35,603 nt of DNA from assembly GCA_027062035.1 (NCBI GenBank), contig JAMOUL010000219.1:1-35603 (forward strand), given 5' to 3'. Below are positions 29,842 to 35,603 of this stretch, piece by piece. The translations under genes and the position numbers were made by a program. The number at the start of each line of letters is the position of its first letter. Within the stretch, counting starts at the first letter, position 1. The DNA is from Candidatus Aminicenantes bacterium. Its GTDB lineage: Bacteria > Acidobacteriota > Aminicenantia > S016-38. Below the pieces are notes generated by a model. That model searched no databases. It worked only from the letters and a program-made list of their open reading frames with translations, and was not told the origin of the DNA.

Positions 29842-30372
29842 CTACCTCCTGATAAAGGTTCTGAATTTACCATTGATAAGCAGTCTGAATTCTCCACGTT
29901 TTTTCAACCAGATTCTGTTGAATTTGACTTCGAGGTTTACAGGCTCCAGGGCCCTTCCCATTTCTTTTATCCTTTTCAGGAAGGTGAGTACGCTTTTGAA
30001 GGTTTTAGTACCTCCTTTAACAGAGATTTCCCAGGAGAGATAAGGGTCGCCGGATGAAATTCTTCTCGACTTTGAGGAGGATATAAATATAAGTTTAACT
30101 CCGGAAATCGAGGCAAAATTGGAAAATTTCCTTACCAGAATCTCTATATCTGCTTCTGAGGGAAGAACCCTCTGGAGCTCAGGAAGTTTTGCTTCCAGAG
30201 TTTTTATCTCCTCCTCCAGCAGTTTTATCTGGGCCGCCGCACTTTTTAATGTAGCCAGCCTTTCCTGTGCTTTTTCAAGTTCTATCCTCTTTCCCTCAAT
30301 ATCCACTATTTTTATGGACAGCAACCAGATAGAAAGGCCTAAAAATAAAACAGCTGCTCCAATGTTTTTCAT
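29842..30372 (-). CDS. PilO-like pilus assembly protein
   Basis: A single N-terminal TM helix is followed by a coiled coil ('LEKAQERLATLKSAAAQIKLLEEEIKTLEAKLPELQRVLP') and an alpha/beta core. The operon position also fits PilO. Confidence 0.55.
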   Translation of the reverse strand: MKNIGAAVLFLGLSIWLLSIKIVDIEGKRIELEKAQERLATLKSAAAQIKLLEEEIKTLEAKLPELQRVLPSEADIEILVRKFSNFASISGVKLIFISSSKSRRISSGDPYLSWEISVKGGTKTFKSVLTFLKRIKEMGRALEPVNLEVKFNRIWLKKRGEFRLLINGKFRTFIRR

Positions 30373-30920
30373 TTTTTCCCCCTATCGAAGGTTCCAGCTA
30401 TAAAAAATTCCCCCCGGGAATTCCTTGTTTCCTCAATTTTTTCTCTGAAGAAACCGCTGAAATTTAATGCCTGAATAAAGCTGGAGTATACATTGGCGTC
30501 TGCGGCATATCCCTTTATGGTTATTCTGCTTTTTTCCTTTTTAACCGCTGAAATTACCAATCCATCGGGAACCAGTGTGTTCAGAGCTTCGTAAAACTCT
30601 ATCGTTCTCTTCTTGTTTTTCTGCAGAGTTTTGATTCTGGTTATCATGGAGCGTACAAGGGCTCGTTTTCTTTTTAACTCCACTAACTTCTTTTCTACGT
30701 CCTGGTATGATGCGCATTCCTCCCTGATTCTGTTAATTCTACTGGTAAGGGCGTAGTTTAGATAGAAATTTCTTAGTCCCACAAAGGTTATTGCCAGACC
30801 TATAAATAGGGTAAACAGAGTCCTTCCAGGGAAGGAACGGCTTCTCACGGACGAAACCTCGTTGTCATTTTCAAAAATCTCTTCCTCATCGAAAATTCCC
30901 ATTTCTTCAGCTCTGCTCAT
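30369..30920 (-). CDS. PilN-like pilus assembly protein
   Basis: A cytoplasmic N-terminus is followed by one TM helix ('LFTLFIGLAITFVGL'), a coiled coil and a periplasmic core. The stop overlaps the pilO-like start (ATGA). Confidence 0.55.
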   Translation of the reverse strand: MSRAEEMGIFDEEEIFENDNEVSSVRSRSFPGRTLFTLFIGLAITFVGLRNFYLNYALTSRINRIREECASYQDVEKKLVELKRKRALVRSMITRIKTLQKNKKRTIEFYEALNTLVPDGLVISAVKKEKSRITIKGYAADANVYSSFIQALNFSGFFREKIEETRNSRGEFFIAGTFDRGKK

Positions 30921-31788
30921 AGCTCCTCCTTTTGGTGGGGTTAAATTTCAGAAGATGGTTTTCGAGAACCCACAATCCGGCAAGAAGAAGCAGGTTCTGG
31001 TTGTCCTCGCCGGATTCCATTGCAGGGAATACTTCCCTGAATCTCAGGCTAAGAAGAACGTTTTTATATATATTGAAGGGAGAGAATTCATTAACTTTAA
31101 GGTCATGGTTCATGGTTACCCCGGAAAGATATAGCTCTGAGAAATCCCGGAGTTCTCTGACCTCTTCCTCCAGAGCCCGAAGCAACGAATCCTTTATAAT
31201 CGGGAGAAAAATTGGATCCCCATTTATCCATCTCCTTCTGGCCAGGGATAGGTCTATGTTTTCTACAATTGCCAGTTTGTCTATGGCGTGAAATACCCCG
31301 TAATTTTCAGTATGAATGATAAGTCTTCCGTCCCTTTCGATCATGAAAACTGTGTGGTCAAATCCCACATCTATAAGTGCAAAGTCTTGAGTTTTCCCTC
31401 TGATCCTTAGCGATTTCTTGAGGAAAAAATAAAGCACAAGAGGAGCAGGGATAATCCTCTGGATTTTTATCCCCGCTTTCTTCAGCGTTTTTCCGACGTT
31501 TAAAAGGAAAACTTCATTTGCCCCAAAAAAGAAATCTTCACCATTTATTGAAACCGGTCGCCTGGAAACCTTTATTCCTATGTTAGGGTGAGAAGTTTTT
31601 ATTCTCTTTAAAGCTCTGAGAATTATGTTAGCCTTTTTCCCTCTGTCCCTTTTTATCCTATTAATTTTCCATGATGTATGAGTCTTTAGGCCTCTATTGA
31701 GTCCCAGAAGTTTCCTTATTTTATCCGTTAAAAATGGGGGAGACTGCAGTCTCTGGATGCCGTGGGGTTCAAAGGAATAGATCAGCAT
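30907..31788 (-). CDS. Divergent PilM-like (actin/ASKHA-fold) pilus assembly protein
   Basis: 'FALIDVGFDHTVFMIERDG' resembles the PilM phosphate-2 motif. The operon position is upstream of the PilN-like gene. The canonical N-terminal 'GLDIG' motif was not seen. Confidence 0.5.
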   Translation of the reverse strand: MLIYSFEPHGIQRLQSPPFLTDKIRKLLGLNRGLKTHTSWKINRIKRDRGKKANIILRALKRIKTSHPNIGIKVSRRPVSINGEDFFFGANEVFLLNVGKTLKKAGIKIQRIIPAPLVLYFFLKKSLRIRGKTQDFALIDVGFDHTVFMIERDGRLIIHTENYGVFHAIDKLAIVENIDLSLARRRWINGDPIFLPIIKDSLLRALEEEVRELRDFSELYLSGVTMNHDLKVNEFSPFNIYKNVLLSLRFREVFPAMESGEDNQNLLLLAGLWVLENHLLKFNPTKRRSYEQS

Positions 31789-32768
31789 TATAACCTCGTT
31801 GCTATTCCCATGAGGGGAAGATATATGGAGATGAGCACCAGGAAAACAAGGGACCCAAGAACTATGGTTATAATGGGTACAACTGCATCGGATAATTTTT
31901 TAAGCCTTGAAAAAAGCTCATCCCTTGTCATTTCTGCAAGCCATGGTAGAACCTCATCCAGGCTACCCGTAGCTTCTCCGGCCTGAAGCATTGCTATTTC
32001 GTGTGGCATTAAATATGGAGCAAGGGCGTGGTGGAAACTTTCTCCGTTCATAATAGAATCCCTGACACTGGATAGATCGAAAAGATGTAAGTGTATGTTG
32101 GAGAAGGCCTGATGCAGATTAAATCCACTTGCATATGCAAAACCCAGGCTTTCGAAAAGAAGAACCTTTTCGTAGAGGAGGGAAATCCTTCTCATGAAAG
32201 GGAATAAACTTAACACATATTCCCAGTTTCTTGAAAGATACCAGCCAGATAAGAGCAGAAATATGATAATTAAGGGAAAGAAGTCCAGCAGGAATTTTCC
32301 TGCTGAGAAAACCGCCTTTGAAATTCCAGGGAGTTCTCCTCCGAAGGCTGTTACCAGCTCTGAAAACTTCGGCACCACGTACATCATTATGAAAATGAAA
32401 ATTCCAACAGCGAAGATTACTTCTATGGCCGGAAAGAAAATGCTCAGCAGAAATTCTTTCTTTGTTTTCCCCATTTTTTCAACGTGCTGATAGAGGTTTT
32501 TAAGGCCATCTTCCAGTTTTCCTGAGTCACGGGAGCTTTTCAGAAAGTGGTACTCTGCCTCCGGAATTTTTCCCCTGAGGTCCTCAAGCCAATCCCCTCT
32601 TCGTTTTATGCCGAAAAGGGGATAGACAACCTCTGCTGCCTGAACGATATTTACAACCCCGGCCTTTACATAGTAGAAGAGCATTTTGTAAAGGCGTTCT
32701 CTGTTGTTTACCTTTTTTCCCCTGCTTGAAAAGAATGAACCAGCTTTTCTTCGAAAGTGGTTTGCCAT
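31788..32768 (-). CDS. Type II secretion system F-family platform protein (PilC/GspF-like), short form (326 aa)
   Basis: There are two T2SSF-like repeats ('VVPKFSELVTAFGGELPGISK' and the C-terminal 'VPIITIVLGSLVFLVLISIYLPLMGIA'). GGAGGTG lies 2 nt before the ATG. The stop overlaps the pilM-like ATG (TAATG). Confidence 0.75.
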   Translation of the reverse strand: MANHFRRKAGSFFSSRGKKVNNRERLYKMLFYYVKAGVVNIVQAAEVVYPLFGIKRRGDWLEDLRGKIPEAEYHFLKSSRDSGKLEDGLKNLYQHVEKMGKTKKEFLLSIFFPAIEVIFAVGIFIFIMMYVVPKFSELVTAFGGELPGISKAVFSAGKFLLDFFPLIIIFLLLSGWYLSRNWEYVLSLFPFMRRISLLYEKVLLFESLGFAYASGFNLHQAFSNIHLHLFDLSSVRDSIMNGESFHHALAPYLMPHEIAMLQAGEATGSLDEVLPWLAEMTRDELFSRLKKLSDAVVPIITIVLGSLVFLVLISIYLPLMGIATRL

Positions 32769-32917
32769 TTCACCTCCTTTACAGAAAGTGGATGGTTATC
32801 CTTTTCAGGAAGAAAAAGGTGGGGCAATGTTATATGTGTTCTTTGAGGGTCGGTATCAATGAGCGGTGCAACCAAATAGATTAAGAATTTCTTAGTTGTA
32901 CCTTTCATTATTAAATA

Positions 32918-32945
32918 ATTTTATAAAAATTTTTGTGTTTGTCAA
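32918..32945 (-). promoter_or_regulatory. Near-consensus sigma70 promoter for the pilus-like operon
   Basis: On the minus strand: TTGACA (32940-32945), then a 16-nt spacer, then TAAAAT (32918-32923), in an AT-rich 320-bp intergenic region about 150 nt upstream of ATG 32768. Confidence 0.55.
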
Positions 32946-33090
32946 TAAGAAAAATAAAAATAATTAAACTAATTCGAATAATTTACACAAATTAAATAGA
33001 AGGGAGGAGATATAATTTCGAGAATTTTAACAAAAACTTATTGGAAATTTCCATAAAGCAGGGAAATTTTTCGGGGAGAAAATAAGGTCT

Positions 33091-34494
33091 TTAAATAAGC
33101 ACTCTTCTATGGGAGTTTTCCCTGTGGGTTATCCCCAGTGAATCGAGAAGTTCAAGGATTGGAATGGCATATTTTCTTGAGAGGGAGGTTAATTTCTTGA
33201 ATTCCTGAATTGTGAGGAGTCTCTTACCCTTTATCTTTTTCTTTATCTCTTCTATCAGATCATTGTGAACCAGGAAGCCTGAAGTGTAATATATTTTTCC
33301 CTCGGTAATTAGCTTGGTTATCAGTTGTTCAACCATCCTGCGATTTTTCAGGTCCCGCAGCAGTCGGTCCATATCCACTATTTCCATGCGTACCATTCCT
33401 TCTATTATCTCCTCCATTTCCATCAGCTTTTTCTCATCCTCTGGTACGAAGTCAGCAAGGCTTACAGCTTCTCCCCTCAGTTTTAATCTGCCCTCGGATA
33501 TGCCTGTAGAAAGGGCGACATTGAAAATTTCCTTTCTCAGGTCCAGCTTTTCCCTTAATTTTTCCTTCTCCATACCGAGAAGAGCTGGTTTTGCCCTGTG
33601 AAAGGGTTTCAGTTTATCTTCCATTTTCTTTACTATTTCCATGATTCCCTTACGACTGATAGCAGAAAGGGGTGAGAAGGAGAATATTCTAATTTTGCCT
33701 TCCTTCTGTTCCTGAAGCATGAGTTCTTCGAGATAAACGGGTCTCCATCCTGTCTGGGCTATTATTCCTCCTGCACTGGCAGGTCTCTGAAGAAAATACA
33801 GGAGGGTTTCCCGGTCATCCATAGGGGGTATGGGCTTTTCCTTTTCTGTTCTTCTTATTCTCAGAATTCTCCCGCAGAATTTTTTATTATCTCTTCGCAG
33901 AATGAATTTTTCGTCCCTGAATATGAGAAAGGGGTTTGATAGCTTCAGTATTTTTCCCCCCTTTTCCTCCTGAATTACAGCCTCTGTAGAAAAACCATTG
34001 CTGAGGAATCGGTATTTGCCTTCCCGGGCTTCGGTATCCACATCAAACATAAAGGATGGCTCCAGTTCTTCTCCCACCAGTATTTCCCCTCTTTTGAATT
34101 TAAGTGGTTCGTGGAACTCTAACTTCAATATCTGGAAAACTCCGAGACTTTCCATATCTATGTTCTGGAAGGTTATACGCCTGATCCTTACCCACTCTTT
34201 TTTCGTGGGGGAATAAAGCCGCTTCCCTCTCCTGATTCTACCCCATTTCTTCACGAAGAACCCATCGCCAAGGGAGATGAGGTAAGGCAGAAAATTGTTC
34301 CTCCACAGGGGTTCTGCTTCGTGGGTAAAGGGTACAAGACCGCATTTTTCCAGGAATTCGTCCTTGCCTTTAAGGAAAGGAGCAGTGTTAAACCACTGCA
34401 GGCGACCCCTTATTATGCCTATTCGGTCATCTTCTTCGATCTTCTGTTCTATGGAAAACCTTTCCGATGGTTCGTAAACGAGTATGTCTCTCAT
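33091..34494 (-). CDS. SelB-like protein: EF domain-III-like barrel plus C-terminal winged-helix domains, but no GTPase domain
   Basis: The C-terminus 'LTIQEFKKLTSLSRKYAIPILELLDSLGITHRENSHRRVL' matches the SelB winged-helix-4 signature. 'LKLSNPFLIFRDEKFILRRDNKKFCGRIL' resembles the end of SelB domain III. No GxxxxGK[ST] P-loop occurs anywhere. The ATG overlaps the pgi stop (ATGA). Confidence 0.7.
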   Translation of the reverse strand: MRDILVYEPSERFSIEQKIEEDDRIGIIRGRLQWFNTAPFLKGKDEFLEKCGLVPFTHEAEPLWRNNFLPYLISLGDGFFVKKWGRIRRGKRLYSPTKKEWVRIRRITFQNIDMESLGVFQILKLEFHEPLKFKRGEILVGEELEPSFMFDVDTEAREGKYRFLSNGFSTEAVIQEEKGGKILKLSNPFLIFRDEKFILRRDNKKFCGRILRIRRTEKEKPIPPMDDRETLLYFLQRPASAGGIIAQTGWRPVYLEELMLQEQKEGKIRIFSFSPLSAISRKGIMEIVKKMEDKLKPFHRAKPALLGMEKEKLREKLDLRKEIFNVALSTGISEGRLKLRGEAVSLADFVPEDEKKLMEMEEIIEGMVRMEIVDMDRLLRDLKNRRMVEQLITKLITEGKIYYTSGFLVHNDLIEEIKKKIKGKRLLTIQEFKKLTSLSRKYAIPILELLDSLGITHRENSHRRVLI

Positions 34495-35603
34495 GTAGTT
34501 CTTCTCTCACCTTTTTTCCTTTTGCCAAGGATCATTTCCATGGCCAGTTTTTTCATGCGTTCTACAGCTGGCTGGTCAAAGGGATTTATTCCCTTCATGC
34601 TGGATATGTACCATACCTGCGATTCCAGAAGGGTTATGAATTGTCCCAGAAATCTTTCGTTTATTTCAGGAATCTCGAAGGAAATGGTCCTTCTTCCTTC
34701 CTGCACCAGTGCTAATTCCGTAGAATCACCCATGAATGAGTATATTTCAGCCAGAGAGCGTCCGGAAAATTCTGTTTCAAGGTATGGATTTTCAGGAATC
34801 TCAATGTCGTGCCTGGCTTTTTTTAACTTCCAGAAGGTATAAACCTTATCGTCAGGCCCGTCAAGGTAAAGCTGGAGTTTCGAGTGCTGGTCCACCGATC
34901 CCATATCAAGAACAGGGGTCTGTCCCCAGCCGTTCTTTCCAAGGCTTTCGCTGTAGAGCTGCCTGTACCAGAGGCCAAGAGGATGGAGATGCTCGCTATA
35001 AACAAGGATTACCTGCATTGGCGAACCTGTTTCGCAGGCGTGATAAAGGAAATATGCTGAAATCAGAGCTGGATTTTTCCGGGGTTCAAGGGATGCAAGT
35101 TCAATTCCTTCCATTCCTCCTGCTATGAGGGCGTCTATATCCACTCCTGCAAGGTAGAGTGGTACAAGGCCCACCGATGAAAGAACAGAGTATCTTCCTC
35201 CCAGACTTTGTGGGATTGGAAAGGATATAAATCCCTCTCTGTCCGCCATTTCCCTCAACTTCCCCTTTTCGGGATCGGTTATAATTATGAACCTTTCCTT
35301 GTTTCTGCCAGCTGCATCAAACAGGAGAAGGAAGTTGATTATTGTTTCGGTGGTTCCGCCGGATTTGGACACAACAATAAAGGCAGTTTTTTCGGGTTCA
35401 AGCAGTTCCATGAGTTCATGCGTTCTTTCAGGGTCAATATTGTCAAAGAAGAAAATTCTCTTTCCCCGGGAATTGTAGGAGAAAGGAAGAAGGGCTCTCA
35501 ATACAGCTTCCGTTCCAAGAGAACTCCCGCCTATGCCGGCAATGACCATGTTTTCTATTTCCATCCCCTCAAGCTCTCCCCTTATCATTTCAGACCATGG
35601 TTC
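34491..35603 (-). CDS. pgi: Glucose-6-phosphate isomerase; 5' end outside the window (frame open to the edge)
   Basis: 'VIAGIGGSSLGTEAV', 'VVSKSGGTTETI', 'GGRYSVLSSVGL' and 'GINPFDQPAVE' are present. The reading frame continues upstream of the first in-window ATG (35588) to position 35603. Confidence 0.9.
   Translation of the reverse strand, partial: EPWSEMIRGELEGMEIENMVIAGIGGSSLGTEAVLRALLPFSYNSRGKRIFFFDNIDPERTHELMELLEPEKTAFIVVSKSGGTTETIINFLLLFDAAGRNKERFIIITDPEKGKLREMADREGFISFPIPQSLGGRYSVLSSVGLVPLYLAGVDIDALIAGGMEGIELASLEPRKNPALISAYFLYHACETGSPMQVILVYSEHLHPLGLWYRQLYSESLGKNGWGQTPVLDMGSVDQHSKLQLYLDGPDDKVYTFWKLKKARHDIEIPENPYLETEFSGRSLAEIYSFMGDSTELALVQEGRRTISFEIPEINERFLGQFITLLESQVWYISSMKGINPFDQPAVERMKKLAMEMILGKRKKGERRTT

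Follow-up and report, generated by a model that had tools for sequence, protein, structure and literature searches.

The window analysed here, the whole 35,603 nucleotides of contig JAMOUL010000219.1 (C219), belongs to a Candidatus Aminicenantes bacterium of the class Aminicenantia, represented by a metagenome-assembled genome (MAG; GCA_027062035.1) of 2.35 Mb in 434 contigs with a completeness of 97.7% and a contamination of 5.6%. Close to its far end, on the reverse strand, an open reading frame (ORF) for a 467-aa protein ending in ...SLSRKYAIPILELLDSLGITHRENSHRRVLI follows directly on pgi, the gene for glucose-6-phosphate isomerase. This protein is a derivative of SelB, the textbook elongation factor that reads a hairpin in mRNA, and represents a long form from which the GTPase (G) domain is absent. 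Two SelB winged-helix domains are recognised by Pfam, SelB-wing_3 at residues 423-464 (E 1.6e-13; 50 bits against a cut-off of 23) and SelB-wing_2 at residues 294-346 (E 8.7e-8), while GTP_EFTU finds no match in the protein even at E<=1. A motif search likewise returned no Walker A motif, and no DxxG-type or NKxD motif in a G-domain context. The bacterial selB model TIGR00475 aligns through positions 202-577 of its 581 to residues 86-463, but at 34.3 bits it falls below the equivalog cut-off of 242.25. The presence of both SelB-wing_2 and SelB-wing_3 without GTP_EFTU, at an intact and conserved length, is the pattern of a GTPase-less clade found in Aminicenantia, and the 467-aa protein displays it. 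The original prediction, made from the letters of the window alone, of a SelB derivative that has neither a G domain nor, anywhere, a Walker A motif is thus borne out by Pfam, TIGR00475, the search for G motifs and profile alignment with hhalign; a near look-alike of a Walker A motif, GRIRRGKR at residues 85-92, is not a P-loop.

The domain anatomy of the protein (Table 1) rests on a predicted AlphaFold2 (AF2) model built on 14 relatives, together with profile and sequence alignments. The model has a mean predicted local distance difference test score (pLDDT) of 89.6 and consists of an all-beta portion (residues 1-215) followed by four winged helices (WH1-4; residues 227-467). Its best Foldseek matches in the PDB are full-length SelB structures (4ZU9 and 5LZB; E ~1e-20), after which come many EF-Tu and EF1A entries (E ~1e-8). 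When aligned by hhalign with a profile of 14 true SelBs, residues 84-467 correspond to SelB 203-630 (probability 99.8; E 5.7e-29), and positions 220-459 of the family profile match the WH1-4 structure of Moorella thermoacetica SelB (1LVA; E 5.9e-27) as well as the RNA complexes 2PLY, 2UWM and 1WSU. In domain III, the stretch ...LKLSNPFLIFRDEKFILRR...CGRIL aligns with the SelB consensus LRLExPVvaxxGDRFILR...GGGxVL. A SelB domain III barrel and the winged-helix module that binds the selenocysteine insertion sequence (SECIS), both read by eye in the original prediction, are therefore confirmed by hhalign, the 1LVA profile match and Pfam.

Table 1. Features of the SelB-like gene and of the adjoining end of pgi in the window
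Feature	Residues	Positions	Strand	Basis
Whole gene, long form	1-467	33091..34494	(-)	ORF, Pfam and NCBIfam matches, AF2, Foldseek
N-terminal extension: three-stranded beta-meander and loop with short helix	1-68	34291..34494	(-)	AF2
Degenerate EF-Tu/SelB domain II with conserved basic loop GRIRRGK	~69-143	34066..34290	(-)	hhalign, MAFFT, Foldseek
SelB domain III beta-barrel	~144-215	33850..34065	(-)	hhalign
Spacer between domain III and WH1	216-226	33817..33849	(-)	AF2 secondary structure, SelB alignment
WH1 and WH2	227-280 and 281-346	33457..33816	(-)	1LVA profile match, Pfam SelB-wing_2
WH3 and WH4, the SECIS-binding pair in SelB	347-410 and 411-467	33094..33456	(-)	Pfam SelB-wing_3; 1WSU and 2PLY matches
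pgi (glucose-6-phosphate isomerase), 5' end cut by contig end		34491..35603	(-)	PF00342 (E 7.7e-28); several NCBIfam glucose-6-phosphate isomerase models
ATGA start/stop overlap with pgi		34491..34494	(-)	ATG 34494-34492; pgi TGA 34493-34491

The N-terminal part departs most from SelB. It had been described as some 110 residues unrelated to EF-Tu-type G domains, yet no more than about the first 68 lack an assignment, since the following segment, to about residue 143, is a degenerate domain II by hhalign, MAFFT and Foldseek matches to EF-Tu. The 68-residue extension has neither a Pfam match nor detectable relatives. Although the string DDRIG within the N-terminus resembled DLRIGFVD of SelB by eye, hhalign of residues 1-100 against the SelB G domain gives a probability of 0.1, and a G-domain relic was dismissed on this basis. 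Within the full AF2 model the extension reaches pLDDT values of 74-94, compared to 59.6 when folded alone; given this poor value, the extension probably does not fold as a domain of its own, and in the model it may form a cap packed on the barrels. Domain II begins near residue 69, and the MAFFT block reveals that its GFGTVVTGTL strand is gone. The selenocysteine (Sec) pocket described in SelB of A. aeolicus, a salt bridge between Asp185 and Arg241 along with a basic residue at position 186 (Itoh 2015; PMC4605307), is not retained, in that the aligned positions in the hhalign and MAFFT alignments are F/Q/I and S/L and the strand bearing part of the pocket is deleted. The basic loop GRIRRGKR (residues 85-92; 34219-34242), of which GRIR+G is present in all long forms, including the distant homologue P0058 considered below, replaces the acidic SGxIxxGEEL of SelB domain II and could provide an added nucleic-acid contact. 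One orthologue (P0002) reads GRIRRGKT at this loop, a chance match to the Walker A expression that does not make it a P-loop.

The part of the protein that grips the SECIS in SelB is also the part that has changed least. Eight positions of WH4 do not vary among the 14 SelBs compared, and the 467-aa protein retains the residue at each of them (R440, K441, P445, L447, E448, D451, T456 and R463). WH4 is 63% identical to that of P0058, against 22-31% for the other domains, and it is 52% identical to WH4 of the short forms that prevail elsewhere in the class and 39% identical to that of true SelB. A comparison of the whole gene with an orthologue of 79% amino acid identity yields a proportion of nonsynonymous changes (pN) of 0.115 and of synonymous changes (pS) of 0.76, the synonymous sites being saturated, and thus a pN/pS of ~0.15. 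Divided by domain, pN is 0.16 in the N-terminal extension and in domain II, 0.08 in WH1-3 and 0.07 in WH4; with a pS of 0.71 in the extension, the gene is under purifying selection, its N-terminal extension included. Nine clusters at 90% identity, 467-471 aa in length and at 54-100% identity, share the long architecture, and a copy, one per genome, is found in all seven genomes of the window's own family (f1; two genera), a single copy being cut by the end of its contig. An assembly error or frameshift as the source of the architecture, raised as a possible refutation with the original prediction, can be set aside given these nine clusters and seven genomes with the same form.

None of the machinery for selenocysteine accompanies the gene. 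In the MAG it is the only match to SelB-wing_3, no SelB-type G domain and no second SelB-wing occur elsewhere, and the N-terminal half of TIGR00475 is matched by EF-Tu-like factors only. No match to selA was found, matches to the selD model lie far below its cut-off, and ARAGORN identified no tRNA-Sec among the 43 tRNAs of the MAG. The same holds across family f1, where all seven genomes are without a true selB, selA or selD above the cut-offs and without a tRNA-Sec. Candidates returned by RF01852 were rejected where they were read: a match that just exceeds the gathering score in genus g2 (51.2 bits in all four genomes, of which one was read) is a tRNA-Ser(TGA), and the two top matches in the window's own MAG are a tRNA-Ser(GCT) and a tRNA-Ser(TGA). 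The top matches in two further genomes (G012 and G032) lie below the gathering score, and the identification as tRNA-Ser covers only those read from g2 and the window's own genome. A search for full-length selB, selA, selD and tRNA-Sec in the host, with profiles, ARAGORN and RF01852, therefore came back empty, and the designation of the protein as a SelB paralogue, in the sense of a resident selB beside it, does not stand. With no G domain and no Sec pocket, in a genome without selA, selD, tRNA-Sec and a true selB, the 467-aa protein cannot deliver Sec-tRNA.

The gene belongs to an operon in which pgi is not the only constant member. The ACATGA sequence at its junction with pgi is identical in all five f1 loci read there (L014, L016, L018, L024 and L080), and the ATGA overlap with pgi, from which translational coupling was predicted, is confirmed, as is also evident from the ORF coordinates and PF00342. 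The window stops within pgi at position 35603, but a 111-kb contig from another assembly (L024; ENA ERZ27262658), which is 99.9% identical over 9.6 kb, continues beyond this end and presents rnr, a 19-nt gap, a full 409-aa pgi, a 4-nt overlap and then the SelB-like gene. No G-domain ORF lies upstream on L024, where rnr and pgi are found instead, and with no SelB-type G domain elsewhere in the genome, the statement that the upstream gene is pgi rather than a split-off G domain proves correct. RNase R, the product of rnr, is an exoribonuclease specialised for structured RNA; the enzyme encoded on L024 carries the usual OB_RNB, CSD2, RNB and S1 domains, with nothing obviously missing. The order rnr-pgi-X, where X denotes the SelB-like gene, is present in all seven f1 genomes and in the genome of P0058, which also shares a divergent signal-peptidase gene ahead of rnr. 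It recurs in families f5 and f9. In family f2, of which one locus was read, pgi lies ahead of X and the contig ends before any rnr is visible. Among 23 short-form loci examined, 20 have rnr-X without pgi, while in the large family f3 a divergent 347-aa form is located away from rnr among neighbours unrelated to RNA metabolism. That pgi lies upstream, as originally predicted, is thus correct, but pgi is neither the sole nor the most widespread partner, the operon being rnr-pgi-X and, in most of the class, rnr-X.

Relatives of the protein were found in 136 of the 151 Aminicenantia genomes surveyed, and the GTPase-less clade spans the class. A full-length match (profile positions 1-459) is confined among these genomes to family f1; elsewhere the match begins around position 190, and the ORFs concerned, ~350-400 aa long, constitute a short form composed of domain III and WH1-4. 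Among 1.84 billion representatives, the long form comprises a single cluster at 50% identity (f1) and one outlier, the 516-aa P0058, which was located via the protein index as the only long form outside f1, collections of genome and metagenome contigs having yielded no locus for it. Long and short forms are 27-31% identical over the whole protein. Other matches of 428-494 aa that lack a P-loop (P0094 and others) begin in a canonical GTP_EFTU_D2 and were discarded, as they look like true SelBs cut at the N-terminus. The largest family of the class, f3 (L066-L071, L076-L079), has a form of 347-351 aa on a branch of ~1.7 substitutions per site, usually convergent with a gene for a TPR protein, and within this family all seven genomes of genus g9 are without a match. 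About ten Aminicenantia genomes hold a true selB alongside the GTPase-less copy. In the six that were read no rnr was found near the true selB within the 9.7-16 kb read, and in all three loci scanned with Pfam the true selB directly follows a selD-like gene with AIRS and AIRS_C domains (L059:9780-11093, L061:206-1831 and L064:5292-6497). Extant loci thus lend no support to the idea that the adjacency to rnr goes back to an ancestral selB locus. The selD-like gene of L061 (541 aa) is fused to a C-terminal carboxymuconolactone-decarboxylase (CMD) domain.

True SelBs served as the outgroup in maximum-likelihood trees built with LG+C20 on about 360 shared columns, and the placement of the root depends on that outgroup. 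These trees unite the 467-aa protein with all GTPase-less forms in a single clade (support 100/97-99), which a long, well-supported branch separates from the true SelBs. The long clade, formed by f1 with the 467-aa protein and by P0058, has a support of 98/96-97. The short clade has a support of 94/64 in one tree and of 96/92 after thinning; within it the lineages that contain pgi and f3 are basal, and the group with rnr directly ahead of X forms one derived clade (100/99). No specific sister relationship links the true SelBs of extant Aminicenantia to the GTPase-less clade, which may have originated either by an old duplication or by transfer. As the long sister lineage still carries domain II, the comparison of sequences suggests a stepwise reduction of SelB, with loss of domain I followed by loss of domain II. 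In such a course the G domain would have been lost once, the long lineage would have kept a remnant of domain II and gained or kept its N-terminal cap, the short lineage would then have lost domain II, and pgi would later have dropped out of an older rnr-pgi-X arrangement. The occurrence of rnr-pgi-X both among the long forms and in the basal lineages of the short clade makes it the probable ancestral arrangement for all GTPase-less forms of Aminicenantia.

Compared to known systems, the 467-aa protein shares with bacterial SelB (TIGR00475; 4ZU9 from A. aeolicus, 5LZB from E. coli on the ribosome) a homologous, though degenerate, domain II, domain III and WH1-4 in the same order, as well as the invariant WH4 block SRKYAIP.LE.LD..T.R. 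Unlike bacterial SelB, it has 68 residues in place of the G domain, a domain II short of one strand and of the Asp and Arg of the Sec pocket, a TIGR00475 score of 34 bits against 242, a host without selA, selD and tRNA-Sec, and a place in an rnr-pgi operon, whereas the true selB of the class follows selD. The short form of Aminicenantia (~350-365 aa; at NCBI likewise a 'SelB C-terminal domain-containing protein', e.g., MBN2245832.1) belongs to the same clade, has the same domain III and WH1-4 arm, WH4 motif and linkage to rnr, and likewise occurs in genomes without Sec machinery; the 467-aa protein is ~105 aa longer than this form by virtue of its domain II remnant and N-terminal extension, and represents a rare sister lineage. 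A precedent for SelB relatives in organisms without selenocysteine is provided by the archaeal SelB-like family (aSelBL), described as homologues that resemble the SelB elongation factor and were once proposed to be a tRNA-specific elongation factor (Atkinson et al. 2011; PMC3037878). Archaeal SelB is without the winged-helix arm of the bacterial type (Itoh 2015; PMC4605307). By that description, the 467-aa protein resembles aSelBL in the re-use of SelB without selenocysteine but is the reverse of archaeal SelB and aSelBL in having kept the arm and not the GTPase. In eukaryotes and archaea the elongation factor leaves recognition of the SECIS to a separate factor (Itoh 2015; PMC4605307), and a stand-alone SECIS-arm protein apart from a GTPase is formally similar to this division of labour; however, as no partner GTPase, tRNA-Sec or selenoprotein machinery was found in the genome, it is not a split recoding system. 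Full-text literature searches brought up no publication on GTPase-less SelB proteins of bacteria; the nearest one, on the archaeal SelB-like GTPase family (PMC3037878), concerns something else. The orthologues are named 'SelB C-terminal domain-containing protein [Candidatus Aminicenantes bacterium]' by NCBI, and this kind of protein is thus already labelled by domain in databases yet uncharacterised, with the long form as its least reduced member.

The reading favoured here, to which we assign a probability of roughly 0.6, is that the 467-aa protein is an intact and selected descendant of SelB that has lost the G domain, has an N-terminal cap, a degenerate domain II, domain III and WH1-4, and most likely serves as a binder of an RNA stem-loop. 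Because WH4 is the most conserved part, comparison with SelB indicates that the protein most likely binds a specific RNA stem-loop, by means of the arm that domain III and WH1-4 would form, and acts post-transcriptionally. Since the host bacterium has no selenocysteine system, the most likely course is that the arm of SelB was put to new use as an RNA binder on its own. The role put forward in the original prediction, in which an RNA hairpin would be bound but no Sec-tRNA delivered, is plausible and accords with the extreme conservation of WH4. The persistent co-occurrence with rnr in an operon suggests that this role may connect with RNase R-dependent RNA turnover or with post-transcriptional control, which is the leading, if unproven, guess. 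The retention of a hairpin-reading arm under strong selection across a whole class after loss of the GTPase, and in many genomes after loss of the entire Sec trait, points to an uncharacterised RNA-binding function, and the long form reveals both the order of domain loss and the age of the rnr-pgi-X operon. Should the target RNA and any connection with RNase R be identified, the protein would exemplify a module of a translation factor re-used for post-transcriptional control.

Several observations weigh against this reading. An Rfam scan of positions 30000-35603 at E<=1 gave no match, a conserved hairpin upstream of rnr was not found, the upstream contexts differing between genera, and folding of five orthologous operons in sliding windows gave no convincing recurrent stable hairpin. 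SECIS-like hairpins in pgi or neighbouring mRNAs, which the original prediction had proposed to look for, were accordingly not found by the Rfam scan, the comparison upstream of rnr or the folding of the operons. The recurrent stable windows that did appear were rejected as RNA targets, as they coincide with conserved Gly-rich protein motifs (GIGGSxLG in pgi and the RNB motif in rnr). The link to rnr is not universal, given the position of the gene in f3, and the adjacency may reflect no more than descent of the gene order. DNA and proteins are further ligands of winged helices. Furthermore, the MAG is fragmented and contaminated, and the absence of Sec genes rests on the agreement of seven genomes rather than on a closed one.

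A tentative alternative, with a real but minor share of the probability, makes the protein a dedicated partner of RNase R, with the arm capturing structured RNA or, in the manner of SelB, a hairpin located where mRNA enters the ribosome, and handing it to the co-expressed RNase R, or regulating the rnr operon via a SECIS-like element; E. coli SelB reportedly represses translation of selAB through a SECIS-like 5' element. The linkage to rnr outlasts the very deep divergence of long and short forms: it is seen in seven of seven loci of the long form, in that of P0058 and in 20 of the 23 loci examined for the short form. Where genomes have both genes, it is the GTPase-less copy that lies with rnr, the true selB lying behind selD, and the entire rigid arm of domain III and WH1-4 has been retained, not WH3-4 alone. 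However, the f3 genomes, whose copy lies apart from rnr, call for caution over an obligate pairing with RNase R. Also against this alternative, neither the operon nor the region ahead of it yielded a conserved hairpin, RNase R has its usual complement of domains, and conservation of an operon within a single class can amount to simple descent. Unlikely is a GTP-independent adaptor fashioned from the arm of SelB, in which the remnant of domains II and III together with the winged helices would dock on the ribosome or on RNase R, read mRNA stem-loops and direct RNase R-dependent decay or translational control. If true, this would constitute a new class of RNA-turnover or translation regulators that descend from an elongation factor, and the long form would have preserved the ribosome-contacting domain II.

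Quite improbable is a winged-helix transcription regulator that binds DNA and merely descends from SelB. Winged helices are typical DNA binders, and there are weak Pfam matches to helix-turn-helix families, namely HTH_Crp_2 and FeoC in a related protein (P0182) and DsrD (E 0.35) in the 467-aa protein; however, the most conserved block is the SelB-specific WH4 motif SRKYAIP-LE-LD...T.R, WH4 contacts RNA in the SelB structures matched by the profile (1WSU, 2PLY and 2UWM), and no other DNA-binding family is significant in Pfam. The notion of a decaying selB relic after loss of the Sec trait, or of half of a split or misassembled selB, is brought to mind by the genome without Sec machinery, the degenerate domain II and the end of the contig 1.1 kb upstream, but it is already largely refuted and deserves hardly any credence in view of the constant 467-471 aa in nine clusters and in those six f1 genomes whose copy is not cut, the pN/pS of ~0.15 with constraint on the N-terminal extension and domain II too, the span of the clade across the whole class on its long, well-supported branch from true SelBs and into genomes that keep a true selB, the 111-kb contig with rnr-pgi and no G-domain ORF upstream, and the lack of a second SelB-wing or SelB-type G domain in the genome.

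In the window, an AT-rich spacer of 182 nt lies 3' of the SelB-like gene and is followed by genes for a type IV pilus (a PilC/PilMNOPQ-like operon). Within this spacer, ahead of the pilus operon, is a candidate sigma-70-type promoter (TTGACA-16-TAAAAT; 11 of 12 consensus positions; 32945-32918, reverse strand), and because this promoter would serve the pilus genes, the SelB-like gene is the last of its own operon. A 66-aa ORF (32708-32908, reverse strand) overlaps the start of the PilC-like gene and is called as a gene on L024 (9587-9787), although it has no family match and may be spurious. L024 also extends into a two-component pair resembling NtrY/NtrX. Genus g2 (L014/L016; 7448-9163) has a gene for a Ser/Thr protein kinase bearing a PEGA domain after the SelB-like gene, where the window's genus has the pilus operon.

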